DNA of 64,000 bases from Candidatus Binatia bacterium (GCA_050176585.1 JBFXHX010000021.1:1172-65171), one strand, 5' to 3'. Shown: positions 888-41,491, counted from the first letter of the stretch. Notes: a model not told the origin generated them from the letters alone. Numbers and translations: made by a program.

Positions 888-895
888 CGACTCTC

Positions 896-2913: not shown

Positions 2914-2966
2914 GTTCGTTCCTCCTCCGAGTTCGCGAAACGCCGGCCCGCGCGGCGCACGCGCCA

Positions 2967-4925: not shown

Positions 4926-5047
4926 GATCATTGATCCCTCCACGCTACACTTCTCACCCCGGGCCGCAATGGCGCAAGCGCCCGGCCGCTCGTCGGTCGC
5001 GACCTGGCACCGCCCGGGAGCGAAGCCGTCTCGACGAGCACCACCGG

Positions 5048-5356: not shown

Positions 5357-5364
5357 GTCGGGCC

Positions 5365-7660: not shown

Positions 7661-7672
7661 GATCTCGTCCCC

Positions 7673-8707: not shown

Positions 8708-8721
8708 CGTCGTATCTCTCA

Positions 8722-18089: not shown

Positions 18090-19637
18090 TCACTGCGGGC
18101 GCCGGCGCAGCACGAGCAGCGCGACGGCAAGGCCCACGACCGCCCACGCGAAGAGGTCGCCGGTGCGCGTGTACACCGTGCGGATCTGCAGAGGTCGAAT
18201 CTCGGCCTGCAAGGTCTCGGGCGTAAACAAACCGAGGCGCTCGATCACGCGCCCGAAGGGATCGACCACCGAGCTCACTCCGGCGTTACCCACGCGCATG
18301 AAGTAGCGGCGGTTCTCCACCGCGCGCCAGACCGCGATCGCCTCGTGTTGATACGGCGCCATCGAACGGCCGAACCACGCGTCGTTGAACAGAGTCAGCA
18401 GGGCCTCGGCGCCGACCTGCGTCATCGCGCGGGCAATCTCCGCGGGCGTGTCCTCGTAACAGATCAGCGGCGCCAACCGGATGCGGCCGGGGACGTCGAG
18501 GGTAGCGATGCGGGCGCCAGGGGTAAACTGCCCCGTGCGCGGGCTGAACGCGTGCAATCCCGGAAACAGCGAGGCCCCGGGGAGGTACTCGCCGAACGGA
18601 ATCAGCACGCGCTTGTCGTAACGGCCGTATACGCGTCCGCCGCCATCGATGAGAAAAGCGCTGTTGTACGTTCGCGGTTGACCGCCACCGGCAGCGCGCT
18701 CGTAGGCGAGCCCGCCGTAGACGAGGAACGTGGAAACGCCGACGTATGGATTGTACTCGGGCGGCAGGAGCGGAAGGTCTGCTCGCACCCACTCCTGTGA
18801 GACCGACTCGGGCCAGATCAGCACATCGACGTGCGACTGCAGCGGCTCGGAGAGCTCGCGATACGCTTGGAGGTTGATGTCGAACAGCGCGACGTCATCC
18901 TTCTCCTTGATGCCGATGTTGCCCTGCACGAGCCCGACCGCGACGGGAGGAGCCGCGTCGATCGCCGCCTGTACCGTCGGCATGCGCCACGCGCCGTACG
19001 CGATCAGCGCGACCGCGGACAGCGCGGATGCCGCGAGCGGCGCGAGCCGCCGCGGCTGGCGCAGCGCCAGAACCATTCCGGCGTTCGTCCACACCATCAC
19101 GAAGCTCAACAGATAGGGTCCCGTGAGATCGCCAGTCTGCAGCAGCAGCGGCGCCTCCAGTTGGCTATTGGCGAGCCGCCAGGGGAAGAGGTTCGGAAAC
19201 AGAAACTCGAGCGAGACCCACAGCACCGGCGCCGCGAGCGCGTACGGACCAAAGCCCAGCGCGCGCAGCCCCCACCCGAACAGCGCGAACTGGACCGCGG
19301 AATACGCCGAGAGGCACGCGTAGAACACGACCGCGAGCGCGTACGGAAACCCGCCGAAGACGTGGATCGTGTACACGAGCCAATAGAAAGCGGGCACATT
19401 GGCGCCCAGCCCGGCCAGGAACCCCGCCCGCAGCGCGGCGCGGCGCGTCGGTGCATCGATCACCGCCCAGATGAGCGGCGCAAACGCGACCCAGGCGAGC
19501 GGATACAGTGAGAAGTCGAGCCACGGCGCGGCGACCAGGAGGCCAGCGGCGATGGGCGCCAGTGTGGTCCGCCACAACGAGGCAGTGGCGGGGACGCTCA
19601 GGGCGGTGGAGCGCACCGCATCAGGGCGTGTCAGCAC
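18090..19637 (-). CDS. lnt: Apolipoprotein N-acyltransferase
   Basis: N-terminal TMs, VQGNI, IWPES, YNSA, YDKRVLIPFGEY, ICYE, NDAWFG, RAVENRR. Confidence 0.95.
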   Translation of the reverse strand: MLTRPDAVRSTALSVPATASLWRTTLAPIAAGLLVAAPWLDFSLYPLAWVAFAPLIWAVIDAPTRRAALRAGFLAGLGANVPAFYWLVYTIHVFGGFPYALAVVFYACLSAYSAVQFALFGWGLRALGFGPYALAAPVLWVSLEFLFPNLFPWRLANSQLEAPLLLQTGDLTGPYLLSFVMVWTNAGMVLALRQPRRLAPLAASALSAVALIAYGAWRMPTVQAAIDAAPPVAVGLVQGNIGIKEKDDVALFDINLQAYRELSEPLQSHVDVLIWPESVSQEWVRADLPLLPPEYNPYVGVSTFLVYGGLAYERAAGGGQPRTYNSAFLIDGGGRVYGRYDKRVLIPFGEYLPGASLFPGLHAFSPRTGQFTPGARIATLDVPGRIRLAPLICYEDTPAEIARAMTQVGAEALLTLFNDAWFGRSMAPYQHEAIAVWRAVENRRYFMRVGNAGVSSVVDPFGRVIERLGLFTPETLQAEIRPLQIRTVYTRTGDLFAWAVVGLAVALLVLRRRPQ

Positions 19638-21293: not shown

Positions 21294-23078
21294 TCAGTGC
21301 ACCTCGCGCATCGCGGCCAGCATCTCGTCCGGGCTCACGTAGCCCACCAGACGGCGCCGTTCGTCTCCGCCGGGCGTGAACAGGATGACCGTCGGCACGC
21401 CTTTCACATCATAGCGCGACGTCAATGCGTCGTTGTGCTCGCTCTCGCTGGTTATGTCGGCGCGGACCATGCGGAATCGCCGCGCCTCGCGCACGACATC
21501 CGGATCGACGTAAGTAGTCGCCTTCATCTCCCGACAGGGGATGCACCACTCGGCGCCGAAGTCCACCAATACGGGGCGCGCGTCAGCCGCCACTGCCGCG
21601 CTGTCGAACGGCTCCCAGGTGATCGCCTGCGCCGGCTGGGCTGACGGTATCATCCAGACAGCGACCGCGAGCGCAAGCACGCCAGCGGTCGCCTTGAAAC
21701 CCACGAAAGCGGGTCGCGAGCGCCCAACGGGGTCGAGAAAGCCCAGGTAGATGCCGGACGCCGCCACCGCCACCGGCAGCGCCCAGGCCTTCGCCGGCAA
21801 GGGCAGGAGTGGGGCGACGTAGTAGACCGCCAGGCAGATCAGCACACAGCCGAACAGGTGCTCGCTCCAGCTCAGCCACTCCCCTGAGCGCGGCAGGCGC
21901 CGCAGCGAGCCCGCGAGCAGCGCGAGCACCAGATAGGGCGCGCCCATACCCAGGGCGAGCGAGAAGAACAAGGCGAATCCGAGCCCTGCGTCCTGGCGCG
22001 TGCCGACGAAGACCAGCAATCCGACCAAGATCGGGCCAACGCACGGCGCGGCGACCACGCCCATGGTCAAGCCCATGAACAGGGCGCCCGCCGCGCCGGT
22101 TGCCGCGCCGCCGGCCCAGCGCAGCAGCACGGTGGGCGGCCGAAGCTGGTAAAGGCCGAAGCTGCCTGCCGCCAGGATCAGCAAGACGGCAGCGATGCCG
22201 AGGAGCACCGCTGGGCGCTGCAGGGCGGAGCCGATCACGCCGCCGGATAGCGCCGACAGCAGGCCGAGGGCGGAGAACGAAATCGCGATGCCCAGCACGT
22301 ATACGGCCGCGAGAAGCACGGTGCCTCGGCGGCTTCGCGTCTGACCGCCGAAATACGCAACGGTGACCGAGATCAGCGGGTACACGCACGGCGTCAGATT
22401 GAGGGCGACCCCCAAACCCAGCATGACGAGCGCGGTCAGCAGCAGACCATGGCGCTGCAAAAGGTTCTCGAAATAGCCGCCTCCTTCGCGGTTCAAAGCC
22501 GCCAGCGCTCCGCCGGCATCCAACAAGGTGGCCTCGGGCGACGGGGGCATGCCGCCAGCGGCCGCGTGTTCGCGCAGCGGGATGTCGCGCTCCACGCGGG
22601 CGGTGGTGGGCGGCAGGCACGTCGTGTCGTTGCACGCCTGGTAGCGCAGCTCGGCGACGAGGCGAAGGGCGGGATCGGCGAAATCAGCGGGGATGCGCAG
22701 CCGAGTGTTGATCGGGACCTCGCCCTCATAGACCGACAGTTGCTCGTCGCCCGCGAAGGAGAAGGAGCGCGTCAGCGGTTCCGGATAGCGCGGGTCGTCT
22801 GCGGTGACACCCGCGGGCAGCGCCAGCTTGAGAGTCGTGGGGACGAGGAACGGTTGCTTGGGTTGGTGCGCGTTGATGTGCCAACCGGGTGCGATCTTAG
22901 CGGCGACGGTGAGCCCGACCGTTCGCCCCGATGCCTCCGCGCTCGACACCGGCGCGGGCTCGACGGACAGCTCGACTTTGGGCTCGACCGCACGCCCCGT
23001 TATCGGCGAACAGAGCGCGCTTAGCAGCAGCAGGACGCCCAGGAACTGACGGGGCATGATGCACACGGATGCTCGCAT
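21294..23078 (-). CDS. dsbD: Thiol:disulfide interchange protein DsbD
   Basis: N-domain YQACNDTTC, TM domain LTPCVYP and APCVGP, thioredoxin WCIPC. Confidence 0.92.
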   Translation of the reverse strand: MRASVCIMPRQFLGVLLLLSALCSPITGRAVEPKVELSVEPAPVSSAEASGRTVGLTVAAKIAPGWHINAHQPKQPFLVPTTLKLALPAGVTADDPRYPEPLTRSFSFAGDEQLSVYEGEVPINTRLRIPADFADPALRLVAELRYQACNDTTCLPPTTARVERDIPLREHAAAGGMPPSPEATLLDAGGALAALNREGGGYFENLLQRHGLLLTALVMLGLGVALNLTPCVYPLISVTVAYFGGQTRSRRGTVLLAAVYVLGIAISFSALGLLSALSGGVIGSALQRPAVLLGIAAVLLILAAGSFGLYQLRPPTVLLRWAGGAATGAAGALFMGLTMGVVAAPCVGPILVGLLVFVGTRQDAGLGFALFFSLALGMGAPYLVLALLAGSLRRLPRSGEWLSWSEHLFGCVLICLAVYYVAPLLPLPAKAWALPVAVAASGIYLGFLDPVGRSRPAFVGFKATAGVLALAVAVWMIPSAQPAQAITWEPFDSAAVAADARPVLVDFGAEWCIPCREMKATTYVDPDVVREARRFRMVRADITSESEHNDALTSRYDVKGVPTVILFTPGGDERRRLVGYVSPDEMLAAMREVH

Positions 23079-26948: not shown

Positions 26949-29366
26949 TTAGCGCGAGCGCCGTCGCCGCCAGGCGAGCAGCGCCGGCGGCAGCAGCCAC
27001 AGCGCGCTGGTCGCGCTGGACAGCGGCGCGGGATCCACCGCGCAGCCGCCTCCGCCGGACGACGGCCGTCTGGTCGGGGTGCGTGTCACCGTCGCGGTGG
27101 CGGTCGCGGTGTTCACGAGAGTGGGCGTCCTCGTCGGCGTGGTGGTGAAGGTGCTGGTAGGCGGCACCGGCGTGTGGGTCACCGTCGGCGTGTGGGTCGG
27201 CTGTGGCGTGTCGGTCGCTGTGATCGTGGCCGTGGCCTCGCCGGTAGGCGTCGCGGTCGCCTCGGCACTGGGCGTGCCGGTGGCTGTGGCTGTGGCCCCG
27301 CCCACGGACGTCGCAGTCGCGGTGGGCTGGCCGGTGAGCGTCGCAGTCGCCGTTGCCTCGCCGGTCGCCGTCACGGTCGCGGTGGCGGCCTGCTCGCTGG
27401 GCGTGGCAGTCGCGGTGGCCTGCTCGCTGGGCGTCGCAGTCGCGGTGGCGGCCTGCTCGCTGGGCGTCGCGCTCGCGGTGGCCTGCTCGCTGGGCGTCGC
27501 AGTCGCGGTGGCCTGCTCGCTGGGCGTGGCGGTCGCGGTGGCCTGCTCGCTGGGCGTCGCGGTCGCGGTGGCCTGCTCGCTGGGCGTCGCAGTCGCGGTG
27601 GGCTGCTCGCTGGGCGTGGCGGTGGCGGTGGCCTCTTCGGTGGGAGTATCGGTGGCGGTGCTTTCACCGGTGGCTGTAGCGGTCGCGGTTGCCGTGCTTT
27701 CGCCAGTCGGCGTGTCCGTCGCGGTTGCCGTAGCGTCCGGAGTGGACGTGCCCGTCGGCGTGCTGGTCGCGTCCGGCGTCGCGGTATCCGTCGCCGTAGC
27801 GGTGTTTTCCGGAGTCGCCGTCTCGGTCGGGGTCGCCGTCTCGGTATTCTCCACTGTCGCAGTCGCGGTGGCGGTTGCGACCTCGGTCGGGGTATTGGTG
27901 ATGGTCGGGCTGTCCTGTGGAGTGGCCGTCGTGGTGGCGGTGGCGCTCGCCTCCGCGGTGGAGGTGGCCGTCGGCTGGGCGGTGTCGGTCGGAGTGAGCG
28001 TGCCGGTAGGGGTCGCCGTGTTCACCGGGGTCTGCGTATCAGTGGTAGTAGCCGTCGCCGTGTTGATCGGCGTCTGACTGGGAGTAGCTGTCGAGGTTGG
28101 CGCGGGCGTGTTCGTATCCGTTGGCGCAGGCGTCGCCGTCTCGGTGGGCGTGGCGCTGGCGGTAGCCGACGCCGTGTGCTGTGGAGTGTGGGTCGGGCTG
28201 GCGGTACCACTCGCGGTGGCCGTCGGCGTCCGCGTCTCGGTCCGAGTAACCGTGGCCGAGGGCGTGAAAGTCGCGGTGGCCGTGCGGGTGGCAGTGCCGG
28301 TTGCCGTACTCGTGGGCGGGACTGGCGTCGCGCTGGGCGTGCTGGTCGGCGTCGGTGTCTCGCCACTGATGTCGGCGATGTCGATGCCGCCCGGGTTCAC
28401 GCCCGGAAGAGAAATTGTCGTGACCGCGTGGCTCGCTGTGTTTATTACCGAGAGGTTTTGGGTTTGGCTGTTCGTCACGTATACGCGGCCGCCGTCGAGC
28501 GTAGGCGCGAGGTCGAGGGGCAGGCCGCCGACAGGAACGGTGGTGAGCACCGACGGAGGCGACGCCAGCGCATCGATCACCGACACCACCCCGGACATCA
28601 GCGCGTGTACGACGTAGGCGCGGGCGCCGTTCGGCAGGAACGCGACGGCGAACGGGCCGCCGCTGACCGGGATCGTGTTTACGACTGCCGGCGGATTGCT
28701 CTGTGTATCGATGACCGACACCGTGCTGCCGGCGAAGTTGGTGACGTATGCGCGCTGGCCATTGGGCGAGAATGCGACACCGGTGGGCTGCAAGCCGACT
28801 TGGATGTCTCCCACGACCTGGGGCGGGGAGACGGTGAGATCGATGATGGCGACCTGGGTGGCTGACCGCCTCGTCACGTAGGCAACCGCCCCGTCCCGCC
28901 GGACGGCCACGTCCCACGGCTGACCTGAAACGGGCACGGTAAATAGGACGAAGCGCGATGCCGTGTCGATGACGGATACCGAGCCGGAGCGATTGGCAAC
29001 CAGCGCAGTCGCACCACCGGGGACGAATGCCACGCCGTATGGAAGACTGCCGACCTGAATGGTGTCGATCTCGGCGTTCAGCATCGTGTCGATCACGGAC
29101 GCACTGGCAGGCGCGCCCGGGGTAGGCTGCGTCGCCTGCTGGTTCGTCATGTACGCGACTGACCCGTTGGGGCTGACCGCAACCTGTGCAGGATTCGCTC
29201 CCGCGTCGATGGAGGTAATCACCGGTGTCGGCGACGTAGTCAGCACCTCGAGTGTGCCGAGGCTGTTGGTGACGAACACGCGCTCCTGTGCCCAACCGGG
29301 CAGCGCGAGCGCGATCGGCGCGAACGATAAGATGAGGAATCGGGCCATGCGGCGAGCTTCAGTCAT
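26949..29366 (-). CDS. YVTN/YncE beta-propeller surface protein with long Thr/Pro stalk and MYXO-CTERM-like tail
   Basis: Signal peptide, about 7 AYVTN-type blades, more than 400 aa T/A/P linker, tail SSGGGGCAV...WLLPPALLAWRRRRSR. Confidence 0.88.
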   Translation of the reverse strand: MTEARRMARFLILSFAPIALALPGWAQERVFVTNSLGTLEVLTTSPTPVITSIDAGANPAQVAVSPNGSVAYMTNQQATQPTPGAPASASVIDTMLNAEIDTIQVGSLPYGVAFVPGGATALVANRSGSVSVIDTASRFVLFTVPVSGQPWDVAVRRDGAVAYVTRRSATQVAIIDLTVSPPQVVGDIQVGLQPTGVAFSPNGQRAYVTNFAGSTVSVIDTQSNPPAVVNTIPVSGGPFAVAFLPNGARAYVVHALMSGVVSVIDALASPPSVLTTVPVGGLPLDLAPTLDGGRVYVTNSQTQNLSVINTASHAVTTISLPGVNPGGIDIADISGETPTPTSTPSATPVPPTSTATGTATRTATATFTPSATVTRTETRTPTATASGTASPTHTPQHTASATASATPTETATPAPTDTNTPAPTSTATPSQTPINTATATTTDTQTPVNTATPTGTLTPTDTAQPTATSTAEASATATTTATPQDSPTITNTPTEVATATATATVENTETATPTETATPENTATATDTATPDATSTPTGTSTPDATATATDTPTGESTATATATATGESTATDTPTEEATATATPSEQPTATATPSEQATATATPSEQATATATPSEQATATATPSEQATASATPSEQAATATATPSEQATATATPSEQAATATVTATGEATATATLTGQPTATATSVGGATATATGTPSAEATATPTGEATATITATDTPQPTHTPTVTHTPVPPTSTFTTTPTRTPTLVNTATATATVTRTPTRRPSSGGGGCAVDPAPLSSATSALWLLPPALLAWRRRRSR
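27388..27630. repeat. Coding tandem repeat, 8 units of 30-33 bp (TATATPSEQA)
   Basis: gcctgctcgctgggcgt(c/g)gc.gtcgcggtg units at about 27388, 27418, 27451, 27481, 27511, 27541, 27571, 27601. Confidence 0.95.
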
Positions 29367-29671: not shown

Positions 29672-31126
29672 TTAGGCGCCGAGGCGCCCGAGCCGGCGCA
29701 GTGCCCACAGCAAGCCGATACCCAGGCCGCCAATCAGCACGAGACCCGCCGGGCTGGCCGGCGACGGTACGACCGGTATGGGCGGACGAGTGCGCGTCGG
29801 GGTCGACGTAATCGTCGGCGTGTTGGTCGGCGTCCTTGTCGGCGTCAACGTCGGCGTATTCGTCGGCGTGTTGGTCGGCGTATTCGTCGGCGTATTTGTC
29901 GGCGTATTCGTCGGCGTGTTGGTCGGCGTATTCGTCGGCGTATTGGTCGGCGTGTTCGTCGGCGTGTTGGTCGGCGTATTCGTCGGCGTATTGGTCGGCG
30001 TGTTCGTCGGCGTGTTCGTCGGCGTATTCGTCGGCGTATTCGTCGGCGTATTGGTCGGCGTGTTCGTCGGCGTGTTCGTCGGCGTGTTCGTCGGCGTATT
30101 CGTCGGCGTATTCGTCGGCGTGTTGGTCGGGGTGTTGGTAGGCGTAGCCGTCGGCGTGTTCGTGGGCGTGTTGGTCGGGGTATTCGTGGGCGTCGCCGTC
30201 GGCGTGTTCGTCGGCGTATTCGTCGGCGTCGGAGTGTTGGTCGGCGTATTCGTCGGCGTGCTGGTCGGCTGCTCCGGCGGCCCTTGGCTATTGTTCGCGC
30301 CGTTGGCACTCACGACTTGGTTCGTACCCGAACACGGCGCCGAGACGTCAGTGGTAATGCCGAAGAAGTTCGCCGCGATCGCAAACGAGTTCATTTGCAG
30401 CGAGCTGTTGTACACGAACACGATCACTTGACCGTTGTCGAGCGAGAACCCGTCCGTAGGCTCCGCCGCGCACAGCGTCGTGTTCACGGTCACGTTGCTA
30501 GAATTGTCGCAGACGTTACTGGTGGCCGGCAGATTGAACGCGAAGGCGTTTCGCAGATTGGTCCCGTCGCAGGCGGCGTTGAGGTTCTCGGCAATGCAGG
30601 CCGGTCCGACGCTGTCGTTCGTGTCCAAGGGAACCAGAGGTTGGACATTGGACTGGCCCATACAGTCGAATGCATTACCGCAGATGTTCAGCGCACCCGC
30701 CCCCGACCCGAGCGTGACCCGGCCGCCGAAGGAGTTGGTGAAGGAGATGTTCATGCTGTTGGGCGTTAGCTGAACGGTGCGGCGGATTTGCCCGTAGGGA
30801 AAGAGGATCTGTGGTGGGACGTTGTTGGGCAGCACGCCGCCGATGGCTGACGTGAGCTCACCAGGGCTCATGCCTGTGCCGTTGCACGAGCCAGCGCCGA
30901 CGATGGAGCCGGCCACAGTGGTGATCCGCAGACGTTCTGCAGCGCCGAGGTTCTCCGCGCTCAGGACCTGATAAGCAGTGCCATCTGCCGCGCGGAACAG
31001 CGCCTCCACGCCTTGCGCATTGGCGTTACTCACCAGCCACACGCACGCGACCAAGGCCGCCGCCGCGTGTGCTGCCAGTGACCCGAGCGGGCGGCTGGGA
31101 AAGGACCTCTTTATTGTGGTGACCAT
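29672..31126 (-). CDS. Secreted Cys-rich surface protein, long TNTP stalk, IPVVPSP-type C-terminal anchor (copy A)
   Basis: GGAG RBS, signal peptide ending ANA, about 250 aa head with 8 Cys, about 40 PT(N/A)T units, tail [23 protein letters not shown]. Confidence 0.85.
29800..30265. repeat. 12-bp coding minisatellite (PTNT)n, about 38-40 units
   Basis: tcggcgt(a/g)tt(c/g)g repeated continuously. Confidence 0.95.
30250..31021. repeat. About 770-bp direct repeat, copy 1 (second copy at +1362)
   Basis: Line-by-line comparison with 31612-32383 shows about 6 substitutions. Confidence 0.93.
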
Positions 31127-31167
31127 CTGGTTTCTCCACCTCCGGTTACGCGGCTTCGACCCGCCTC

Positions 31168-31196
31168 GAAGTACACAGAGCCTCAACCCTGGTCAA
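31168..31196 (-). promoter_or_regulatory. Candidate sigma70 promoter for copy A
   Basis: TTGACC-N17-TACTTC on the minus strand. Confidence 0.35.
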
Positions 31197-31270
31197 GTCA
31201 AAATTCGCGAGGTCGGATGAGAGTGGATGACCCCTAAAGTCGTCATTCGCATCGACCTCTTAACCGGACG

Positions 31271-32482
31271 CTATTTGGTCAGTGCCATACGGCGGAGGGC
31301 CCACAGGAGTCCCACACCGAGGCCGATAATCATCACCACGCCCGCTGGGCTGGCCGGCGAGGGCACCACCGGGATCGGCGGACGCGTGTTGGTCGGCGGC
31401 GGGGTGTTCGTCGGCGTATTCGTCGAGGTTCTAGTCGGCGTCAGCGTCGGCGTGTTCGTCGGCGTATTCGTCGGCGTATTCGTCGGCGTCAGCGTCGCCG
31501 TGTTGGTCGGCGTATTCGTTGGGGTATTCGTGGGCGTATTCGTCGGCGTATTTGTCGGCGTGTTCGTCGGCGTCGCCGTCGGTGTATTCGTCGGGGTGTT
31601 GGTCGGCGTGTTCGTCGGCGTGCTGGTCGGCTGCTCCGGCGGCCCCTGGCTATTGTTCGCGCCGTTGGCACTCACGACTTGGTTCGTACCCGAACACGGC
31701 GCCGAGACGTCAGTGGTAATGCCGAAGAAGTTCGCCGCGATCGCAAACGAGTTCATTTGCAGCGAGCTGTTGTACACGAACACGATCACTTGACCGTTGT
31801 CGAGCGAGAACCCGTCCGTAGGCTCCGCCGCGCACAGCGTCGTGTTCACGGTCACGTTGCTAGAATTGTCGCAGACGTTACTGGTGGCCGGCAGATTGAA
31901 CGCGAAGGCGTTTCGCAGATTGGTCCCGTCGCAGGCGGCGTTGAGGTTCTCGGCAATGCAGGCCGGTCCGACGCTGTCGTTCGTGTCCAAGGGAACCAGA
32001 GGTTGGACATTGGACTGGCCCATACAGTCGAATGCATTACCGCAGATGTTCAGCGCACCCGCCCCCGACCCGAGCGTGACCCGGCCGCCGAAGGAGTTGG
32101 TGAAGGAGATGTTCATGCTGTTGGGCGTTAGCTGAACGGTGCGGCGGATTTGCGCGTAGGGAAAGAGGATCTGTGGCGGGACGTTGTTGGGCAGCACGCC
32201 GCCGATGGCTGACGTGGGCTCACCAGGGCTCATGCCTGTGCCGTTGCACGAGCCAGCGCCGACGATGGAGCCGGCCACAGTGGTGATCCGCAGACGTTCT
32301 GCAGTGCCGAGGTTCTCCGCGCTCAGGACCTGATAAGCAGTGCCATCTGCCGCGCGGAACAGCGCCTCGACGCCTTGCGCATTCGCGTCGCTCACCAGTG
32401 AGACAAGTACGACAACGGCGAAGCCGATTTGCATCGCGGCGACGGCCATGCCACGGTAAACGCAGTCAATTCTCCGGCCCAT
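31271..32482 (-). CDS. Secreted Cys-rich surface protein, short TNTP stalk, IPVVPSP-type C-terminal anchor (copy B)
   Basis: GGAGG 9 nt before ATG 32482; different signal peptide, same head as copy A, about 20 PTNT units, tail [23 protein letters not shown]. Confidence 0.85.
   Translation of the reverse strand: MGRRIDCVYRGMAVAAMQIGFAVVVLVSLVSDANAQGVEALFRAADGTAYQVLSAENLGTAERLRITTVAGSIVGAGSCNGTGMSPGEPTSAIGGVLPNNVPPQILFPYAQIRRTVQLTPNSMNISFTNSFGGRVTLGSGAGALNICGNAFDCMGQSNVQPLVPLDTNDSVGPACIAENLNAACDGTNLRNAFAFNLPATSNVCDNSSNVTVNTTLCAAEPTDGFSLDNGQVIVFVYNSSLQMNSFAIAANFFGITTDVSAPCSGTNQVVSANGANNSQGPPEQPTSTPTNTPTNTPTNTPTATPTNTPTNTPTNTPTNTPTNTPTNTATLTPTNTPTNTPTNTPTLTPTRTSTNTPTNTPPPTNTRPPIPVVPSPASPAGVVMIIGLGVGLLWALRRMALTK
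31385..31627. repeat. 12-bp coding minisatellite (PTNT)n, about 20 units
   Basis: Same unit as 29800-30265. Confidence 0.93.
31612..32383. repeat. About 770-bp direct repeat, copy 2
   Basis: Near-identical to 30250-31021. Confidence 0.93.
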
Positions 32483-32552
32483 AGCGCTCATCCTCCAATC
32501 TCCACGCGGCGCAGCATCGGGAGAGAGTTCTCCCGAGTCGACCGGCAAGCGG

Positions 32553-32580
32553 ATTACCACCGGCCCCCGCTAGCTGTCAA
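32553..32580 (-). promoter_or_regulatory. Candidate sigma70 promoter for copy B
   Basis: TTGACA-N16-GGTAAT on the minus strand. Confidence 0.35.
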
Positions 32581-33141
32581 GTACAAACGATTGGCGGCCG
32601 CAGAATATTGCGCTGCCGCCCGCCGCCCCCCACACCGGCAAGAATTAGTCGGGAATGGCCATCTCGCCTGCTGCGGGAAACTCGGATCAGTCCTCGCAAC
32701 ATATTTACTCCCCACAGCATCCACCGGGTGGTGCCTACGCCTCCTGACCACCCGCACGCGACCTCGAACGGAAAGCAGCTGGGCAACACGTATAAGGGTT
32801 GGCCGAGTCCGTAATCCGGCCGACGACCAACGGCGAACGAGCTTTAGCTCACACTCAAAGAACAGCGAATGCCGGCGAGCTCCCGACCAGCACCACCGCG
32901 TCCCCAGCAGTGCTCGCCGTCCCAGAACTACGCGGCAACAGCGGCACAATTTTGGCCACTGAACGCGTTACTGGCGGGGAACTGTCGTTCGCCGAGCGCC
33001 GGCTCTTGCCTCGCGACTGCCCATTATCTAGAAGGCCACGCGGCTCCGACGCTCGGCACCGCTGGCACACCACGTGCTCCGACCGCTTGGGCGGTGGGTA
33101 GTACACGAAAGGGACGGGAAACCGGTTGGAAAGTGGTGGCA

Positions 33142-36100
33142 ATGCGGATTAGAACACAAACTTGGCTCGCGGGCGTCCTTGTCGTCGCCGCCTCTCTCGG
33201 CGGTGGCGTCGTCCGCGCCCACGCCCTCTCGGGCATCATCGATACCTACGTCGGCGGCGGCAACGGCGACGGCTCGGCTGCGCAAGGCGCGATCATCGAC
33301 CCGCGCGGCTTCATCGCCGTGGGCTCGGAGTCGGCGCCCGACTTCTACATCGCCGACAGCCTCAACAATCGCGTGCGGCGAGTGGACGGGAATACCGGCC
33401 TCATCGAAACCATCGCCGGCAACGGCGAGCGCGGTTTCAGCGGTGATGGCGGCAGCGCCGTCAATGCAAAGCTCGCGTCCCCGCTCGATGTGGCCCGCGA
33501 CAGCGCCGGCAACGTCTATATTGCGGATACACAGAACAACCGCATCCGGAAGGTGACACCGAGCGGGCAAATCTCGACGTTCGCGGGCACAGGCGTCCTC
33601 GCTTACAGCGGCGACGGCGGTTTGGCCACGCAGGCAGCCCTGTACAACCCGCAAGGCGTCGCCGTCGGGCCGGACGGTTACGTCTATATCGCCGATAACG
33701 GCAATAACCGCATCCGCAGCGTCGGACCGCCGGGGTGTGGTCCCTCGACCTGCGTGATCACCACGGTGGTCGGCACAGGCACTGGCGGCTTCAGCGGCGA
33801 CGGCGGACCGGCCAATCTCGCGATGATCCGCAATCCCGCCGACGTCGCCTTCGACGGCGCCGGCACCATGCTAATCGCCGACTTCTCCAATCACCGCATC
33901 CGCAAGGTCGTCAATGGAGTGATCCTGACGATCGCCGGCGGCGGCACCGGGTTGAACGGCGCGATTGGGGACGGCGGCCCGGCGCTGACGGCCGTGCTGC
34001 GTTACCCGACCCAGGTCGCTGCCGATAATGCCGGGAATGTCTATATCGCGGACAGTCAGAACCGGCGCATTCGCGTCGTGCAGGCCGCCACCCAATTCAT
34101 CGTTACGGCGGCCGGCACAGGTACCTCTGGCACCACTGGCGACGGCGGGCCGGCCGAGAACGCCAGCATCCAAAATCCGTTCGGCGTCGCCGCGATCGGC
34201 AAGACGATGTGGCTCAGCCAAACGGTGGCGCAGCAGAGCTCCCGGCAAAACCGCGTGCGCCGCGTGCTCGACGGGGTAATCACGTCCGTGGTCGGCGGCG
34301 ACCTCGGCGATGGCGCGCCGGCGTATGATGCTTTGGTCGACCCGCGCGGCGCGGATGCCAAAGCCGGCGACGGGGCGGTTCCCGACCTGTATTTCGCCGA
34401 CAGCTCCGACAACCTGGTCCGTTTCGTCGACGGCGCCACTGCCACGATGCAGATCATCGGTGGTACGGGCGCAGCCGGGTACTCCGGCGACGGTGGTCCG
34501 GCGACCGCGGCCCAGCTGCGGGCGCCGTCGGACGTCGCGGTCGACAATGACGGCAACGTGTACGTCGCCGACACCGCCAACCACGCCGTCCGGCGCATCG
34601 ATCCCGAGGGCAGGATCACCACGGTTGCCGGAAAAGGCACGCGCGGCGCCAGCGGCGACGGTGGGCCGGCGACCTCCGCGCTGCTCGCGTCACCGACCGG
34701 CGTGGCGATCGACGACTTTGGGCGGCTGTTCATCGCCGATATGGAAAATAACCGTATCCGGGTGGTGATTGGCGGCGTCATCGAGACCTTCGCCGGCACC
34801 GGAGAATCCAACTACGGTGGCGACGGCGGTGCGGCGGCGGCGGCCAAGCTGCGGTTCCCGAACGACGTGGCGGTCGCCAAAGACGGCACTGTGTATATCT
34901 CGGATACCTTGAGCAACCGCATTCGCCGCGTCGATGCCCGGGGAATCATCACCACGTACGCCGGCGTGGGCACCGCGGGATACAACGGCGACGACATCGC
35001 CGCGACCAGCGCGCGCCTGAACTCGCCTTTGCAAATCGCCGTGGACGACACCGGCAACCTGTTCATCGCCGACTCGCGCAACCTCCGCATCCGCATGGTC
35101 GACCCGGCATCGGGCGTAATCTCGACGGTCGCCGGCAACGGCCAGAGCGGCGATACCGGCGACGGTGGGTCGGCAACCGCCGCATCGTTCAGCGATCCTT
35201 CCGGTATCGCGGTCGATCCGTTGACCCGCGCGCTGTTCATCAACTCCAAGCCGGATACGCGCGTGCGCATCGTCGAGTTTTCGGGCGCCTCTCCGCCACA
35301 ACCGACGGCTACGCCGACTGCCACGTTCGCCCCGCCCACGGCTACACCGACCTTCACATCGATCCCACCCACGGCGACCCGGACGCCTACCAACACCGCG
35401 CCCGCGCCGACCAACACCGCGCCCGCGCCGACCAACACCCCGCCGCGCACGAACACCCCGGGTTCCTCCACGGCCTCGGTCGCCGGCGTGGTGAAGTACT
35501 ACGCCAACTCGCAGATGGTCAGCTCGGTGGACGTCGCCGTCACCGGCTCCGCTAATATGACCGTGCGGACTAATGGGCAGGGAAGCTATGCCGCCACCGG
35601 GCCCGATGGCACCTGGGCACTCGAGCCCCGGAAGACAGGCGCTTTCGGCAACGCGGTGAGCTCGCTCGATGCCGCTCGCGTCCTCCAAGCCATAGTGGGC
35701 AAGACCCAGCTGTCCCCCATGCAGCGCCTGGCCTGCGACGTCACTGGCGATGGCACGCTCAGCTCCTTCGACGCCGTGCACATCCTGCAGCTCAGCGCGG
35801 GCGTGATCAAGCGGTTCCCGGCAGCCACCAACTGCGGTTCGGATTGGCTGTTCTACCCCTCCCCGGTGACCATTGCCGGACAGCAGATCGTCGAGCCGAG
35901 CTTGACCGGCGGTACATGCCGGCAGGGCGAGATCGTCCTGAGCGCGCTGAACGACTTCGTACAGCGACAAGACTTTGACGCCATCCTGTTCGGCGATTGC
36001 ACCGGCAACTGGACGCCGACCAGTGGCGCGCTGCGCCAGACCGCCGGCAACCCCAACGTCAAGGCCGGGCCGCCCCGGTACGCCCGCGGCAACCGCGTGC

Positions 36101-36390
36101 TGATCCCGATCTTCGTAACGGGAACCCAGGAGTTCGACGCTCTCGACCTCGCCATCAGCTTCAATACCGCCGAAGGCGAGTTCATCGATGCGCGGCTCCG
36201 CAACGATCCCGGCGATGCCCTGCTAAACGTCACCCGCGAACAGGGGCAGATCACCATTAGCATCGCCAGCGGCTCACCGATCCCGGTCAGCGGGGGCCCC
36301 GTGCTGCTTCTCGCGTTTACCGCCGACGGCGACGCCGACCTCGGATTCAACCTCGACGGCGCATCCGTCGACGAGCAACTCGCGCGCTGA
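33142..36390 (+). CDS. Secreted multidomain protein: NHL-repeat propellers, PT linker, beta-sandwich, dockerin-like, C-terminal cohesin-like
   Basis: Signal peptide ending AHA; repeated GDGGPA...P.DVA.D..GN.YIAD..N.RIR blades; SSLDAARVLQ...ACDVTGDGTLSSFDAVHILQ dockerin pattern; C-terminal VLIPIFV...LDLAISFN...ITISIA...GPVLLLAF; no TM anchor. Confidence 0.85.
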   Translation: MRIRTQTWLAGVLVVAASLGGGVVRAHALSGIIDTYVGGGNGDGSAAQGAIIDPRGFIAVGSESAPDFYIADSLNNRVRRVDGNTGLIETIAGNGERGFSGDGGSAVNAKLASPLDVARDSAGNVYIADTQNNRIRKVTPSGQISTFAGTGVLAYSGDGGLATQAALYNPQGVAVGPDGYVYIADNGNNRIRSVGPPGCGPSTCVITTVVGTGTGGFSGDGGPANLAMIRNPADVAFDGAGTMLIADFSNHRIRKVVNGVILTIAGGGTGLNGAIGDGGPALTAVLRYPTQVAADNAGNVYIADSQNRRIRVVQAATQFIVTAAGTGTSGTTGDGGPAENASIQNPFGVAAIGKTMWLSQTVAQQSSRQNRVRRVLDGVITSVVGGDLGDGAPAYDALVDPRGADAKAGDGAVPDLYFADSSDNLVRFVDGATATMQIIGGTGAAGYSGDGGPATAAQLRAPSDVAVDNDGNVYVADTANHAVRRIDPEGRITTVAGKGTRGASGDGGPATSALLASPTGVAIDDFGRLFIADMENNRIRVVIGGVIETFAGTGESNYGGDGGAAAAAKLRFPNDVAVAKDGTVYISDTLSNRIRRVDARGIITTYAGVGTAGYNGDDIAATSARLNSPLQIAVDDTGNLFIADSRNLRIRMVDPASGVISTVAGNGQSGDTGDGGSATAASFSDPSGIAVDPLTRALFINSKPDTRVRIVEFSGASPPQPTATPTATFAPPTATPTFTSIPPTATRTPTNTAPAPTNTAPAPTNTPPRTNTPGSSTASVAGVVKYYANSQMVSSVDVAVTGSANMTVRTNGQGSYAATGPDGTWALEPRKTGAFGNAVSSLDAARVLQAIVGKTQLSPMQRLACDVTGDGTLSSFDAVHILQLSAGVIKRFPAATNCGSDWLFYPSPVTIAGQQIVEPSLTGGTCRQGEIVLSALNDFVQRQDFDAILFGDCTGNWTPTSGALRQTAGNPNVKAGPPRYARGNRVLIPIFVTGTQEFDALDLAISFNTAEGEFIDARLRNDPGDALLNVTREQGQITISIASGSPIPVSGGPVLLLAFTADGDADLGFNLDGASVDEQLAR

Positions 36391-36750
36391 GCGCGCACGC
36401 GACGGGACGGCGCGCCGATCTGGGCGCGCCGTCCGGTCGGCCGATCCGCCTGCTTCGAAGCGTGTTACCAGAGCGCACGTGCGACTTGCACGGGCGCTAT
36501 CGCGCTTCCTGGGCAACGTACCGGGTTGAGGGCGCATCGCGGCAGGCGCTTCACGAACTACTGGCGGCGCCGGCCCGATCAGCGGAGGGCGCGGCACCTC
36601 TACGCGAAACCGGCGACACGGACGTCGACTTGGCTTCAGTCGGGGCGGCGCCGTGTACGAACGGGTTACGCCTCAATCGCAGACGACCTCCTCCGTAAGG
36701 CGCATTGATTGCCGCGGCTGCAGAAGCAGTCCGCACGGCGCTTTCTCACT

Positions 36751-36818
36751 TTGACATTGACTCAGTGCCAAATAACACCATTATCCACTTGACTTCGACA
36801 CGGTGGTCGCCCTAAAAC
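36751..36818 (+). promoter_or_regulatory. Stacked sigma70-like promoters
   Basis: TTGACA (36751), TTGACT (36757)-N16-CATTAT, TTGACT (36789)-N18-TAAAAC in an AT-rich island. Confidence 0.5.
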
Positions 36819-36883
36819 GTGCGCGAGATTTGAGGCATGACACGCGTCGTGTCCGGCGCGTATGGCTGTTCGGAGGGTTGGGA

Positions 36884-37993
36884 ATGGGTCTCATGATGGC
36901 GCGTATGGGGAGGAGCGTTGTTCAGTCTGTCCTCATGCTCGCCGTCCTGCTGAGCGCGGGCGAAGGGTGGGCCGTTCAAGTGGCATTGCCCGACGCAACG
37001 GTGGCCATGGGAATGTCCACGGATGTTCCTGTGACGATTGCGGACAGCAACGGCGTCCTGAGCGTGGCTTTGTCTTTCACGTACACCGCCGCGATAGCGA
37101 CCGCCACGCAGGTGTCGGGTACACCCGCGACGAGCGGGTGCACGATTCAGCCGAGCCTCACACCGAGTATGGTCACCATTGTGGCCGCTTGTCCGAACGG
37201 GATCGGAGTTTGCAGCAACAACCCAAACCAAGGCTGCAATCCGAGCGCGCCGAACTGTGGCTCGGGTAACACGTGCACCACCGGCAACCTGCAGCTATTC
37301 AACGTCACGTTTTCGGGCGATTCGCCGGGGATGACGCCTCTGATGTTCGCCGCCACTCAGACGATTCCCAACGGCTGCCAGCTGAACGAGGGCACGCCGT
37401 CATGTGAACCCGACAACGGTTCACTTACGGTAACTGGCGAGGGGCCAACTGCCACCGCGACATCGACCTCCGTGGCGACCAGCACAGCCACGAGCACGGC
37501 GATCGCCACCAGCACCGCGACTAGCACAGCCGTGGCCACGGCTACCAACACCTCGACGGCGATCAGCACCCCGTCGAGCACGGCCACGCCGGTGGTGACG
37601 AGTACGGCGACGCTGACCAACACTATCGGCCCGTCACCCACCCTCACCAACACCGCACCCCCCACCAGCACGAGTACGCCTATCAATACCGCAACCACGA
37701 CGCAGACGAGCACGGTGACAGGCACGGTCACCAATACGCCGCTGGCCACGAACACCGTGACAAATACGGCCGTAAACACCCCGACCGGCACGCCACAAAA
37801 CACTGGAACGGCGACGATCACCCGGACACCGACCGCGACCCGCACGGTAACCAATACCCGTGAGGCGACCTCCACGCGTCCGGCTATTCCGGTCGTGCCC
37901 TCGCCGATGAGCCCCGGTGGCGCGGCAATGATCATCGCACTCGGCGGCGGATTGTTCTGGGCGCTGCGCCGCATGGCGCGAATCGGCGCGTAA
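36884..37993 (+). CDS. Cohesin-like domain on a Thr-rich stalk with IPVVPSP-type C-terminal anchor (scaffoldin-like)
   Basis: GGAGGG RBS, signal peptide ending GWA, VPVTIADSNGVLSVALSFTY...LFNVTF...TPL cohesin pattern, about 145 aa Thr stalk, tail RPAIPVVPSPMSPGG-TM-FWALRR. Confidence 0.8.
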   Translation: MGLMMARMGRSVVQSVLMLAVLLSAGEGWAVQVALPDATVAMGMSTDVPVTIADSNGVLSVALSFTYTAAIATATQVSGTPATSGCTIQPSLTPSMVTIVAACPNGIGVCSNNPNQGCNPSAPNCGSGNTCTTGNLQLFNVTFSGDSPGMTPLMFAATQTIPNGCQLNEGTPSCEPDNGSLTVTGEGPTATATSTSVATSTATSTAIATSTATSTAVATATNTSTAISTPSSTATPVVTSTATLTNTIGPSPTLTNTAPPTSTSTPINTATTTQTSTVTGTVTNTPLATNTVTNTAVNTPTGTPQNTGTATITRTPTATRTVTNTREATSTRPAIPVVPSPMSPGGAAMIIALGGGLFWALRRMARIGA

Positions 37994-38026: not shown

Positions 38027-38058
38027 CATGCCCCGATGAGCTACACCGTCGGGGCATG
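38027..38058 (+). terminator. 12-bp stem-loop between the anchored and free cohesin genes
   Basis: catgccccgatg-N8-cgtcggggcatg; no U-tract, so possibly a stabilising or processing hairpin. Confidence 0.45.
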
Positions 38059-38073
38059 GAAATACGCTATGCC

Positions 38074-38628
38074 ATGCGGGCAAGAGGTAATTCGGATACT
38101 GTTCGCAGCGCGCGGCGCCATCCCGCCGCGCGCTGGCAATTCAGCGCAGTCGCAAAAGCCACGACCAGGATGCTCGCCGCCTCGGTGTTGATGGCGGCCG
38201 GTGCGGCCTCGGGCGTGGAACTGCGGCTCCCAGAGAACGCGGCAATCGACGCGGTCGACGGCACCACCGTGGTGCCTATCACGATTGCGGACACGGCAGG
38301 TGTCCAAGGCATCGCGATCTCGCTGACCTACGCTGGCGACATCGCTACCGCGACGCAGGTCGTGAGCTCGCCGGTGGCGTCGAAATGCACCGTCATGCCC
38401 GGCCTGGCGACGCCGGGTATGATCACGATCGTTGCCGCCTGTCCGGGCGGTCTTGCAGAGGGCACCGACGTCCCCCTGTTCCAAGTGAAGTTCAAAGGAA
38501 ACCGAGGCGGCGTCACGCCGCTGTCGTTCAGCGCCGCACCAAACATTCCGAACGGGTGCCTCCTCAATGAAGGCGCACCGACCTGCGAGCCCCACGGCGG
38601 ACAGCTCACCGTCCGCGGCGGAGCGTAA
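38074..38628 (+). CDS. Stand-alone secreted cohesin-like protein, paralog of the upstream domain
   Basis: VPITIAD..GV...SLTY...IATATQV...C...TIVAACP...PNGCLLNEG.P.CEP aligns with the 36884 protein; start uncertain (38056, 38074 or 38170). Confidence 0.75.
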   Translation: MRARGNSDTVRSARRHPAARWQFSAVAKATTRMLAASVLMAAGAASGVELRLPENAAIDAVDGTTVVPITIADTAGVQGIAISLTYAGDIATATQVVSSPVASKCTVMPGLATPGMITIVAACPGGLAEGTDVPLFQVKFKGNRGGVTPLSFSAAPNIPNGCLLNEGAPTCEPHGGQLTVRGGA

Positions 38629-38935
38629 TTCGCTCCGGACCTGCTCTACATCGACGTCGACTTGCAACGGTACCGCGGTGGCGGTAACCCGCCGAGCGTG
38701 ACTCCGCGCGGCGATCAAACCCCTCGCGCGCGGCTGAGCTGAGCCGCGCCCCTTTATCGCAACCGGCGGCGGGTGCACGCCACCCGCGCCGGTCTGCGTC
38801 AGCCCGCGTAGCGGGATCTCACACGGGCCCCTTCTTCCGGCGTCGCGGCACCGATGGCCCATTCGGCGCGGTCCGCTGCGCGTGGCGGCCCGAACCGTCT
38901 GGCTGCTCCCCCTGCGATCCGCTACACCTCGGCAC

Positions 38936-41491
38936 ATGAGCGATCGCGATTTCCGCCTCCCGCGCCATGTCAGGCCGCGGCGCTATGCGCTGCGCATCGA
39001 CGTCGACCTCGACGCCTGGCGCTTTCGCGGCAGCGAGGAGATCGAGCTGCACCTCGACGCCCCTTCCGAGGCGATTGTTCTGCACGCGTGCGAGCTCGAT
39101 ATCTCGTCCGTGCGCGCCGAGCTCCCCGAAGGCACTCAGCTGATCGGCAGCGCGAGCTTCAACCCCGTCGCCGAGACCGCCACGCTGAGCTTCGGCCGCG
39201 AGCTGCCCGCCGGGCCGATGCGGCTCTCGCTCGACTTCAGCGGCACGATTCTCGCGCGTTTGCGGGGGTTTTACCGCTCGCAGAAGGACGGCCTGCGGTA
39301 CGCCGCGACACAGTTCGAAGCCGCCGATGCTCGCCGCGCCTTCCCCTGCTTCGATGAGCCGGAGTTCAAGGCTCGTTTCGCGGTCACATTGATCGTCCCC
39401 GCTTCCGCCGTGGCGGTCGCCAACGGTGCTGTCGTACGCGAGATCGACCTCGGCGATGGGCACAAAGAGGTGCAATTCGCGGAAACGCCGCCGATCTCGT
39501 CGTATCTGGTCGCCTACACGGTCGGCCCGTACGAGGCCACCCCGGTCACTCACACCGCCACCGGCTGGCCTGTGCGCGTCTTTCTGCCTCGCGGGATGGC
39601 GGACAAGGGCCTGTACGCGCGCGACGCCCACGCCCGCTCGCTCGAGTATCTGGAGGACTACACCGCGATCCCGTATCCGTACGTAAAGGTCGACGCCATC
39701 GGCGTGCCGGACTTCGAGGCGGGCGCGATGGAGAATCCCGGCGCCATCACCTACCGCCTGACCGCGATCGCCGCCGACGCGGCGCGCGCCTCCACACCAG
39801 CGCTGAAGGGCATCTTCTACACGGCCGCCCACGAGCTCACCCACATGTGGTGGGGAGACCTGGTCACCATGGCGTGGTGGGACGACCTCTGGCTCAACGA
39901 GTCGTTTGCCACCTTCATCGGCTACAAAGTGGTCGCCGATCTCATGCCGGAATGGGGAATGTGGCGCGACTTCGTGGCCACGCTGGCGCGCCCGTTCAAT
40001 CTCGATGCGCTCGCCTCCACACATCCGGTCTCCTTCGAGGTGAAGAACGCGAAGCAGGCGACCGAGCGCTTCGACGTGATCACCTACTGGAAGGGCGCGG
40101 GCGTGGTGCGCATGCTCGAGGGCTTCATCGGGGCCGAGGCATTCCGGACCGGCGTGCGCGCTTACCTCGACCGCTACCGCGAGGCGAACGCCACCGCGGA
40201 CGATTTCTGGCGCGAGCTCAGCACCGCGTCGGGCCGCGACATCGCGAACATCGCCAACACCTGGATCAAGCAGGCCGGCCACCCGTTGCTGTCGTTCGAC
40301 ACGCGCGGCGACGAGTTGCTCATCCGCCAGCGGCGCTTCTTCGCGGACCCCGAATCCCTGCCCGACGCTGACGGCGCGCTGTGGCCCACCCCGGTCGTGA
40401 TCAAGTACGGTACGGGTTCGACAATCGATCAGCTGGTTGTGGTCATCGACCGCGCCGAGCAGCGCGTCGCCCTCCCCGGCGCCGAGTGGTTCTACCCGAA
40501 CGGCGACGGTGCCGGCTTTTTCCGCTTCGCACTGGACGACGACGCCTTCGCCCGCCTGGTGCCGGAGGTTCAGCGCGCGCTCAACGCACCCGAGCGCCTC
40601 GCGTTGATCGGGAACCAATGGGCACTGGCGAAGAGTTGCAAGATCGATCTGGGGCAGTTCGTCGACATGCTCGGCGGCTTTCGGAACGAGACCGATCGGG
40701 CTGCCCTGTCCGCCATCACCGAGCGCCTGTACTGGGTGGGAACGCATCTGGTCGACGACCCAGACCGCCCGCTCTTCGAGCGATTCACCGGCGCGTTCTT
40801 CAGTCCACACGTCGCCGCGCTCGGGTGGGATCCGAAGCCCGGCGAGAGCGCCGACGACCGATTGCGACGCGCTACCGCGATCGCGGCGCTCGGCGAGCTG
40901 GCAGAGGACCTCACCGTGATCGCCGAGGCCCGCCGGCGCCTGGAAGGCTATTTCACCGACCCGTCGACCCTCGACCCGAACCTCGCCTCCGCGGTCGTCA
41001 ACATCGCGGCGCGGCGCGGCGACGCCACCCTCTACCAGCGATACCTGGAGCGCAAGCGCGCCGCCGCCACCGACCCCGAAGAAGAACAGCGCTTTCTATT
41101 CGGCCTCACCTCCTTCGAAGACGCCGCGCTGATCAGGCGGACCCTGGACCTCACCCTCACCGAAGAGGTGCGGCCCCAAGACCGGCCGCACCTCTATGCC
41201 CGGCTGCTCGGCTCGCGCGCCGCGCGTTTGTCCACCTGGGCCTTCATGCGCTCGCGTTGGGAGGAGATCACCTCACGGCTCGATCCCATGCTGCAGCAGA
41301 ACATCATCCGCGCGCTTGCCCAGCTGACCCCCGAGCCCGCTGCGAGCGAGGTTCGCGCGTTTCTGCCCGCGCGTGCCACTGACGAGACTCGGGAGACGAT
41401 CGCGCAGACGCTCGAGCAGCTCACAATCGACGCCGCCGTGTGCAAGCGCCTCACGCCAGTGGCGGGCGCCGCGCTCGCGCGAGCTCGCTGA
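38936..41491 (+). CDS. M1 family zinc aminopeptidase with ERAP1-like C-terminal domain
   Basis: [33 protein letters not shown]...WLNESFA. Confidence 0.96.

Follow-up and report, generated by a model that had tools for sequence, protein, structure and literature searches.

We analysed a stretch of 64,000 nucleotides from a Candidatus Binatia bacterium (GCA_050176585.1 JBFXHX010000021.1:1172-65171), referred to here as the window, in which three open reading frames (ORFs) at 29672-31186 (minus strand), 31271-32560 (minus strand) and 36803-37993 (plus strand) all close with a conserved motif, a hydrophobic helix and the residues WALRR. This shared C-terminal tail, which in the third protein reads RPAIPVVPSPMSPGGAAMIIALGGGLFWALRRMARIGA, is the subject of the present analysis, and the three proteins are called carriers 1 to 3. 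The ORF listing agrees exactly with the positions at which the original prediction, made before any database search, had placed the three tails, positions that include the stop codons of both minus-strand genes. The genes and features of the locus are given below in window coordinates. Bit scores are those of a profile made from an alignment of the three window tails (A1), and aa stands for amino acids.

29672..31186, minus strand: carrier 1, with signal peptide, ~250-aa Cys-rich beta-sandwich head, long TPTN-repeat stalk and tail (ORF)
29675..29788, minus strand: carrier 1 sorting tail, consisting of motif, helix and RR cluster (88.8 bits)
29789..30268, minus strand: carrier 1 stalk, Thr/Pro-rich and repetitive (from the translation; coordinates from residue numbers)
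31271..32560, minus strand: carrier 2, a paralogue of carrier 1 with a shorter stalk (ORF, BLASTP; orthologous gene pairs in relatives)
31274..31384, minus strand: carrier 2 sorting tail (88.9 bits)
32869..36390, plus strand: NHL beta-propeller protein with a C-terminal dockerin-containing module and without a sorting tail, a conserved companion of the carriers at the locus (Pfam NHL/TEN_NHL; syntenic homologues in linked loci)
35581..35838, plus strand: dockerin module of the NHL protein (Pfam Dockerin_1)
36803..37993, plus strand: carrier 3, with signal peptide, cohesin-like head, Thr/Ser-rich stalk and tail (ORF, BLASTP)
36953..37450, plus strand: cohesin-like module of carrier 3 (AF2 model, Foldseek; predicted local distance difference test, pLDDT, 65)
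37877..37990, plus strand: carrier 3 sorting tail (92.6 bits)
38056..38628, plus strand: tail-less paralogue of the carrier 3 head, cohesin-like and without a stalk (BLASTP 45% over 173 aa, E 3e-41)
38882..41491, plus strand: M1 aminopeptidase (PepN-like), a synteny marker and not part of the machinery (Pfam Peptidase_M1)

All three carriers end 5-9 residues beyond the RR pair, and 24 of the 42 columns of A1 are invariant. Judged by eye, their N-termini resemble signal peptides, with a hydrophobic stretch followed by ANA before QG or GWA before VQ. Carriers 1 and 2 have head domains with 98% identity across 253 residues (BLASTP), so that the window holds two independent heads and not three; the original prediction was right in counting three carriers and overstated their independence, since two of them are near-identical paralogues. 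Carrier 3 and carrier 2 have in common only a 31-residue stretch of the tail, at 77% identity (BLASTP). At the DNA level the window tails are 67-78% identical, and 9-13 of 32 codons differ in a purely synonymous manner, which argues that the tail is conserved as protein and that no recent copying of DNA is involved. As a separate observation, carriers 1 and 2 combine their 98% identical heads with tails that are 78% identical in DNA (13 of 32 codons with synonymous changes only) and with stalks of unequal length, and from these sequences it looks as if the heads alone had been homogenised through recent gene conversion.

When the host genome (G000; 4.53 Mb in 104 contigs, completeness 100, contamination 1.22) was searched with the A1 profile, exactly three matches were obtained, all of them the window tails (E 6e-26 to 1e-24). 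A six-frame scan of 41,536 ORFs, using a profile that included one unrelated ORF, gave scores of 84-88 bits for the carriers and 12 for the next-best ORF. The genome search proposed with the original prediction therefore recovers only the three places in the window, and carriers are also present in relatives. A wider alignment (A2) comprises 37 tails, those of the window together with others from 21 additional loci. In it P12, S16, P17 and G22 never vary, P9 and P10 show at least 90% conservation, and the consensus signature is PP[IV]P[VLI][VI]xSPx[SA]xxG, then the helix, then W/M-x-L-R-R. The hydrophobic stretch spans ~17-20 residues and is followed by RR, R39 being at least 90% conserved. 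None of the 37 tails has a Cys in the signature region, and one has a Cys within the helix. Heads and stalks diverge to 28-45% identity while the signature stays fixed.

Section 5 of the Haft preprint (10.1101/2023.06.07.544157) sets out eight attributes of tripartite sorting signals, and in the form given in that section all eight are found in the Binatia tail. The same section also describes dedicated systems in which a conserved neighbourhood takes the place of high copy number. The tail is C-terminal in all three window carriers, and in ~102 of 104 sequence clusters found worldwide the match lies within ~10 residues of the end. It occurs several times per genome, at low copy (three in G000, one to four in relatives, mostly in two neighbouring genes). 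A hydrophobic helix and a basic cluster follow the signature across the 37 tails, and N-terminal signal peptides are seen by eye in the three window carriers and in most of the full-length representatives examined. Pairs of proteins that share the tail alone are provided by carriers 2 and 3 and by 54 of 77 heads worldwide that fall outside both window families. A tail-less homologue is found in the ORF at 38056-38628, 45% identical to the carrier 3 head. The tail is thus a modular unit, as had been proposed from the window.

The window proteins and isolated window tails, and then the 37 tails singly, were scanned with the CTERM models of NCBIfam release 20. No model reached its cut-off with the window proteins or the isolated window tails; the nearest scores were 6.4 bits against 27 with PVV-CTERM (NF051874), for carrier 3, and 20.1 against 30 with an LAETG model of the sortase type. 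IPTL-CTERM (TIGR04174) matched none of the 37 tails at E <= 10 and none of the window proteins, and the PEP-CTERM models likewise matched none of the 37. VPXXXP-CTERM (TIGR04143) touched four of the 37 tails (best E 2e-4; the individually scored row gives 10.8 bits against 30), MYXO-CTERM (TIGR03901) matched three weakly and below its cut-off, and PVV-CTERM matched two (best E 1.1). One tail exceeded TIGR03382, a generic model of helix plus RRR (17.9 against 15.85), through helix residues 18-39 only. No NCBIfam CTERM model tested captures the signature, which bears out the initial failure to recognise the motif. In the open-access literature searched we found no description of the tail or of a Binatia exosortase and no relevant mention of XrtX, XrtY or PVV-CTERM; XrtH and IPTL are mentioned there in two relevant papers only.

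A profile of the tail matched 46 of 61 related genomes, all of them in four families of a single order whose genomes are titled Candidatus Binatia (46 of 52 genomes of that order). By family, the tail is present in 16 of 18 genomes of f1, to which G000 belongs, 23 of 26 of f2, all five of f3 and two of three of f4, and in none of nine from other families of the class. These counts include an unpublished genome (G004); without it they become 45 of 60 for the tail and 48 of 51 for the enzyme clade in the order (see below), and no claim made here needs that genome alone. A loose search (E <= 1) of five tail-negative genomes gave a best E of only 0.08, and in an even sample of the phylum (301 genomes) the tail was found only in G000 and G020, both from this order. 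A strict-pattern scan based on the three-tail alignment, which detects near-exact motifs only, was run over 185,579 GTDB species genomes and gave 13 loci, all in metagenome-assembled genomes (MAGs) titled Candidatus Binatia, Deltaproteobacteria, Myxococcales or 'bacterium', some of these being older labels; NCBI taxonomy places Binatia within Candidatus Binatota. Among protein sequences, a word-based search with the 45-aa tail returned two matches, and an exhaustive HMMER search of 1.84 billion representatives returned 104 clusters at E <= 0.001. The 77 clusters of at least 200 aa comprise 14 with the carrier-1/2 head, seven with the cohesin-like head, two with both and 54 with neither, two of the last appearing to be false positives. 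Ten of the other heads were sampled, five with Pfam matches (SdrD_B/SpaA-type adhesin, Dicty_CTDC Cys-rich, Ig-like) and five with none. The tail is rare, lineage-restricted and modular, and it is a real and uncatalogued sorting signal of the exosortase kind, confined to one Binatia order in the genomes searched.

No sorting enzyme is encoded in the window, in agreement with the original prediction, and the exosortase candidate lies on another contig of the host, C8, its counterparts in sister families being close to the carriers. G000 has three exosortase-family genes (C8:109278-109889, C1:218938-219912 and C13:70417-71085), all matching only the general TIGR04178 signature and falling below every specific model. 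No sortase was found in the G000 genome, which also has two CPBP genes (C30 and C2) and three rhomboid genes. The C8 exosortase scores 47.4 bits with TIGR04178 (cut-off 23) and 42.5 with PF09721 (25.7). The XrtH model TIGR04177, with a cut-off of 86, is not reached by the clade members of G000 (68.0 bits), G024 (72.7) or G018 (83.1), and the XrtX model gives 73 bits against 170. In a tree of 43 exosortases, 12 carrier-linked genes fall into one clade with the G000 C8 gene, on a very long branch and with 100/100 support; a thirteenth linked exosortase (G051), outside the tree, has a clade-level profile score. Twenty aligned members of the clade (A3) share an invariant ACSG Cys, an N..R pair and FHxTH, and the residues concerned (C82, N120, R123, H139 and H142) are presumably catalytic. 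Scores with the clade profile are bimodal. Of the 52 genomes of the order, 49 have a single match scoring 243 bits or more, all other scores are 104 or lower, and the nine genomes outside the order have no clade-level match.

The C8 enzyme, taken in this pairing as C8:109368-109889, is accompanied by a partner gene (C8:109873-110598) that overlaps its stop codon and is conserved in relatives, the G000 product being 34-50% identical to the partners of the linked loci. The model for the exosortase H-associated membrane protein (NF041730, cut-off 35) is not reached by the partners of G024 (23.5 bits) and G018 (25.4), and the G000 partner has no match to it at E 1. Taken together, the XrtH scores of 72.7 and 83.1 bits and the weak NF041730 matches suggest an XrtH-like build, though no member passes. 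Among the specific models, XrtH gives the candidate enzyme its best score or close to it, which sustains the earlier choice of IPTL-CTERM as nearest analogue. Two near-closed genomes narrow the choice among the paralogues. In G018 (4 contigs, 99% complete) the only exosortases are one of the C8-type clade and one C13-type paralogue, and in G009 (3 contigs, 100% complete) one of the C8-type clade and one C1-type paralogue. Tails are present in both, and the C8 type is therefore the sole exosortase clade common to these two tail-bearing genomes.

In 13 genomes representing nine genera an exosortase and the carriers share a contig, at a distance of 5.5-15.1 kb. Eleven of these belong to f2 (G018, G021, G027, G031, G034, G024, G038, G041, G043, G044 and G051) and two to f4 (G020 and G023). 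Five of 12 linked loci (L021-L025, from G018, G020, G023, G024 and G043) had a clear gene order, and gene calling based on GC3 (G+C content at third codon positions) gave none that was usable in the other seven. The order in the five is exosortase, overlapping membrane partner of 204-224 aa, one to several large dockerin proteins and two carriers, with inversions distinguishing the loci among themselves. Homologues of the M1 aminopeptidase (40-42% identity) flank the carriers in G020 and G023 (L022 and L023); in L021, L024 and L025 the genes of ~870-920 aa beside the enzyme gave only weak partial matches (24-28%) and are distant relatives at best. The window has a frame like that of the linked loci, with carriers, the NHL protein at 32869-36390 and the aminopeptidase at 38882-41491, and the enzyme pair is absent from it. 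We consider it reasonably probable that the tail is a tripartite signal and that a single clade of small XrtH-like exosortases is dedicated to it, working with a membrane partner of ~220 aa whose gene overlaps that of the enzyme.

Several observations weigh against such a dedicated pairing. Linkage is lacking in the host's own family f1, where enzyme and carriers, in the genomes that have them on a single contig, are 149 kb (G003), 1.06 Mb (G011) and 1.24 Mb (G009) apart. A metagenome scan with the enzyme profile gave 80 loci, 74 of them at clade-level score. Twenty-one of the loci extend for 6 kb or more to one side, and a tail lies within 10 kb in only three of these. In these three the tails are 4.5-8.4 kb downstream and the enzyme is 55-59% identical to that of G000, and loci with an enzyme 79-84% identical to it, like family f1, are unlinked, a pattern that agrees weakly with the picture obtained from genomes. 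Large genes on the opposite strand stand between enzyme and carriers, so that even where linked they do not form one operon. A few tails have a weak basic cluster with a single R (LSR, LGR, LQR). Copy number is low and the majority of carriers across the 61 genomes fall into two or three sets of orthologues, which means that part of the conservation of the tail is orthology. Tail and enzyme clade occur together in 44 genomes and are both missing from 10, and because both mark the whole order this co-occurrence is not independent evidence; the weight rests on synteny and elimination. Two genomes have the tail only (G012, 83% complete, and G025, 97% complete), and five have the enzyme only. Among these five, G006 and G007 are unexplained, and in G045, G026 and G050 the contig stops just past the enzyme or the partner, or within the NHL gene, before the expected carriers, the assemblies having probably been broken by repetitive stalk DNA. 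In the window the stalk DNA is highly repetitive (TPTN ~35 times, 29789-30268), and in relatives some tail matches lie at the extreme ends of contigs (G029:C15:122-238, G036:C709:2-88 and G049:C1114:20-142); these two observations make it likely that carrier genes are under-assembled in short-read MAGs.

The low copy number, and the fact that most instances in genomes are orthologues, would also suit a permanent anchor that is never cleaved, in which a proline-rich juxtamembrane segment is conserved through orthology and through packing of stalk and helix. This we regard as unlikely, since four positions remain invariant amid a fast-evolving low-complexity context, the same tail is carried by many unrelated heads worldwide, a tail-less paralogue exists, an exosortase is linked, and the exact tripartite layout agrees with the criteria published in section 5 of the Haft preprint.

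A second class of tails in the host bears on which exosortase is involved. It comprises ~20 G000 ORFs, whose tails often read C...(V)PAPALS..G followed by a helix and RRRR, and one reads IPTANTWGM. They are located on C29 (four genes, 1-10207), C11, C12, C13 (101560-102514), C68, C58, C63, C76, C7, C10, C18, C14 and C44. Weak matches are given by four of 20 to the midcut-by-XrtH model (best E 7e-5) and by four of 20 to IPTL-CTERM. The C1 (here taken as C1:218938-219777) and C13 exosortases each have a downstream membrane ORF, and no tail-bearing genes occur in their neighbourhoods in G000. It is plausible that the second-class tails are substrates of the C1 and C13 paralogues. The PPIPVVxSPxSPxG tail could itself be a true exosortase signal that is processed by one of these two XrtH-like paralogues, or by all three enzymes alike, the proximity of the C8 type reflecting inherited gene order. 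We find this quite improbable. Although three exosortases of the same build are present in G000, linkage is lost in f1 and rare in the metagenome sample, and enzyme and carriers never form one operon, the C8-type clade is the only one found in both G018 and G009, linkage persists across nine genera of two families despite rearrangements within the locus, and the ~20 tails of the IPTL-like class provide the other paralogues with work. Cleavage by another intramembrane protease, a rhombosortase-like rhomboid or a myxosortase-like CPBP protein, is very improbable, because the three rhomboid and two CPBP genes of G000 belong to near-universal families that give no phyletic signal, none is near the carriers in the window or was seen in the linked loci (where gene content is partly annotated), and the tails have neither the invariant Cys of CPBP-type signals nor a GlyGly motif.

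In the dedicated C8-type system that we favour, the carriers would be exported by Sec through their N-terminal signal peptides and would remain held in the membrane by the C-terminal helix, the Arg residues facing the cytoplasm. The exosortase, through its invariant Cys, Asn, Arg and two His, would cut at or near the Pro/Ser-Pro/Gly signature, on the outer-face side of the membrane. By analogy with sortase and archaeosortase A, the mature carrier may then be handed to an acceptor, and the head would remain at the cell surface on its long Thr/Pro stalk. In G000 the enzyme pair of C8, exosortase and partner, would act from a contig other than that of its substrates.

The head of carriers 1 and 2 is modelled as beta-rich with a pLDDT of 92.5, and five of its 17 invariant positions are Cys. 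It has no Pfam match and no lead in the ESM Atlas, and the matches from a wide structural search, to two cohesins and to sandwiches of Ig-like and MSCRAMM type, stay within the background range (Z <= 7.1). The fold of a pore-forming toxin was considered for it and is not credible, the top Foldseek template modelling (TM) scores being 0.11-0.16 with root-mean-square deviations of 18-27 A. For the carrier 3 head (model pLDDT 65), all the top Foldseek PDB matches listed are cohesins or cohesin-like (prob 0.99-1.00, TM 0.37-0.49); it has no Pfam match, and a profile of it run against PDB sequences matched only spurious designed repeat proteins. Two tail-bearing representatives, P0047 and P0077, unite the cohesin-like module with the carrier-1/2 head in a single protein.

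The dockerin of the neighbouring NHL protein is well supported, with 29.7 bits against 22.9 for PF00404 in the isolated region, matches in 16 of 18 homologous regions, and E 1.5e-15 for its profile against solved dockerins. In the linked loci each of the large proteins has a dockerin-containing end module, and as many as four such proteins occur in one locus. This end module (~300 aa, window 35470-36390; also L021-L027 and L082) consists of a beta-sandwich, the dockerin and a domain of ~110 aa, and the sequence pattern of that last domain recalls the cohesin-like heads. The cohesin-like head of carrier 3 and the dockerin-bearing NHL proteins beside it suggest an anchored docking scaffold, which the tail may serve to fix. 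A prediction of the cohesin-dockerin complex gave a score of 0.07 (mark 0.32) and speaks neither for nor against binding. It is possible, if doubtful, that an undescribed exosortase subfamily, together with its partner and the PPIPVVxSPxSPxG tail, anchors a surface assembly of cohesins and dockerins in the membrane, in which cohesin-like scaffolds on stalks, attached through the exosortase, capture the dockerin-tagged NHL giants of their own locus. If this were true, cellulosome-style docking with a new kind of anchor would exist in a probably diderm, non-cellulolytic lineage.

Other genes of the window touch on the envelope and on sorting. The apolipoprotein N-acyltransferase Lnt and DsbD are encoded at 18090-19637 (minus strand) and 21294-23078 (minus strand), ~7-10 kb from the carriers; the presence of Lnt makes a diderm envelope probable, and DsbD fits the Cys-rich secreted heads. 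A YncE-like beta-propeller protein at 26949-29366 (minus strand) has a Thr/Pro/Ala/Glu-rich low-complexity region of ~440 aa and a different, Cys-containing tail (…GGGGCAVDP…WRRRRSR) that scores 17.1 bits with MYXO-CTERM against 20. The CPBP genes on C30 and C2 could be myxosortase-like.

C-terminal sorting signals decide which proteins are fixed on the surface in many bacteria and archaea, and each new pair of signal and enzyme opens the way to predicting surface proteomes and to studying the chemistry of anchoring. Binatia are abundant uncultured bacteria of soil and sediment. If the proposed pairing is true, a profile of the tail would flag Binatia surface proteins, and annotation pipelines would gain missing models for the tail, the enzyme clade and the partner. 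To our knowledge the attachment target of bacterial exosortase substrates is not established. A low-copy and partly syntenic system such as this one, with one enzyme pair and two or three substrates, is a small and tractable set that could address what exosortases attach their substrates to. Its cohesin and dockerin content hints at surface docking machinery beyond the cellulolytic Firmicutes.

Comparison with known systems helps to place the Binatia tail. In the anchoring scaffoldins of cellulosomes and amylosomes, SLH domains or sortase signals attach the cohesin modules to the cell. Carrier 3 is similar in having a cohesin-like module on a long Thr/Pro stalk with a C-terminal sorting signal, and in the dockerin genes that adjoin it. 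It differs in that the anchor is of exosortase type, the host is uncultured, the dockerins are on NHL propellers and not on glycoside hydrolases, and binding is only inferred. With PEP-CTERM and exosortases A and B the Binatia system shares the superfamily (TIGR04178 is reached), the three-part logic of the signal and a probably diderm host. Unlike them, it has no PEP motif or PEP-CTERM model match in the tail, its enzyme is half the size of the EpsH type, and no polysaccharide locus is found beside the Binatia enzyme. VPXXXP-CTERM and archaeosortase B (TIGR04143/TIGR04144) resemble it in the proline-rich signature, and the C1 paralogue scores best on ArtB, at 75.8 bits; however, the Binatia enzymes reach 38-76 bits against 150 and the one tail scored individually 10.8 against 30, and the spacing of prolines is unlike. 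Dedicated low-copy systems such as JDVT-CTERM/MrtJ (10.1101/2023.06.07.544157) also have only a few targets in each genome, and the genes of enzyme and target keep a conserved neighbourhood, but MrtJ is of the CPBP class and its signal has an invariant Cys. In Binatia the genes lie farther apart (5-15 kb), and some families have lost the arrangement.

The closest known system is XrtH/IPTL-CTERM. The Binatia enzyme stays below the XrtH cut-off of 86 and its partner below 35, the partner of the host genome itself giving no match; the signature is longer (P-x3-SP-x4-G); and the system has one to four substrates per genome and, among the genomes searched, is confined to a single order. XrtH is the enzyme specific to IPTL-CTERM. 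The likeness lies in a tripartite tail whose signature opens with I-P and closes with G ahead of the helix, and in a small exosortase (~170-200 aa) with Cys, Arg and His, followed immediately downstream by a small membrane partner.

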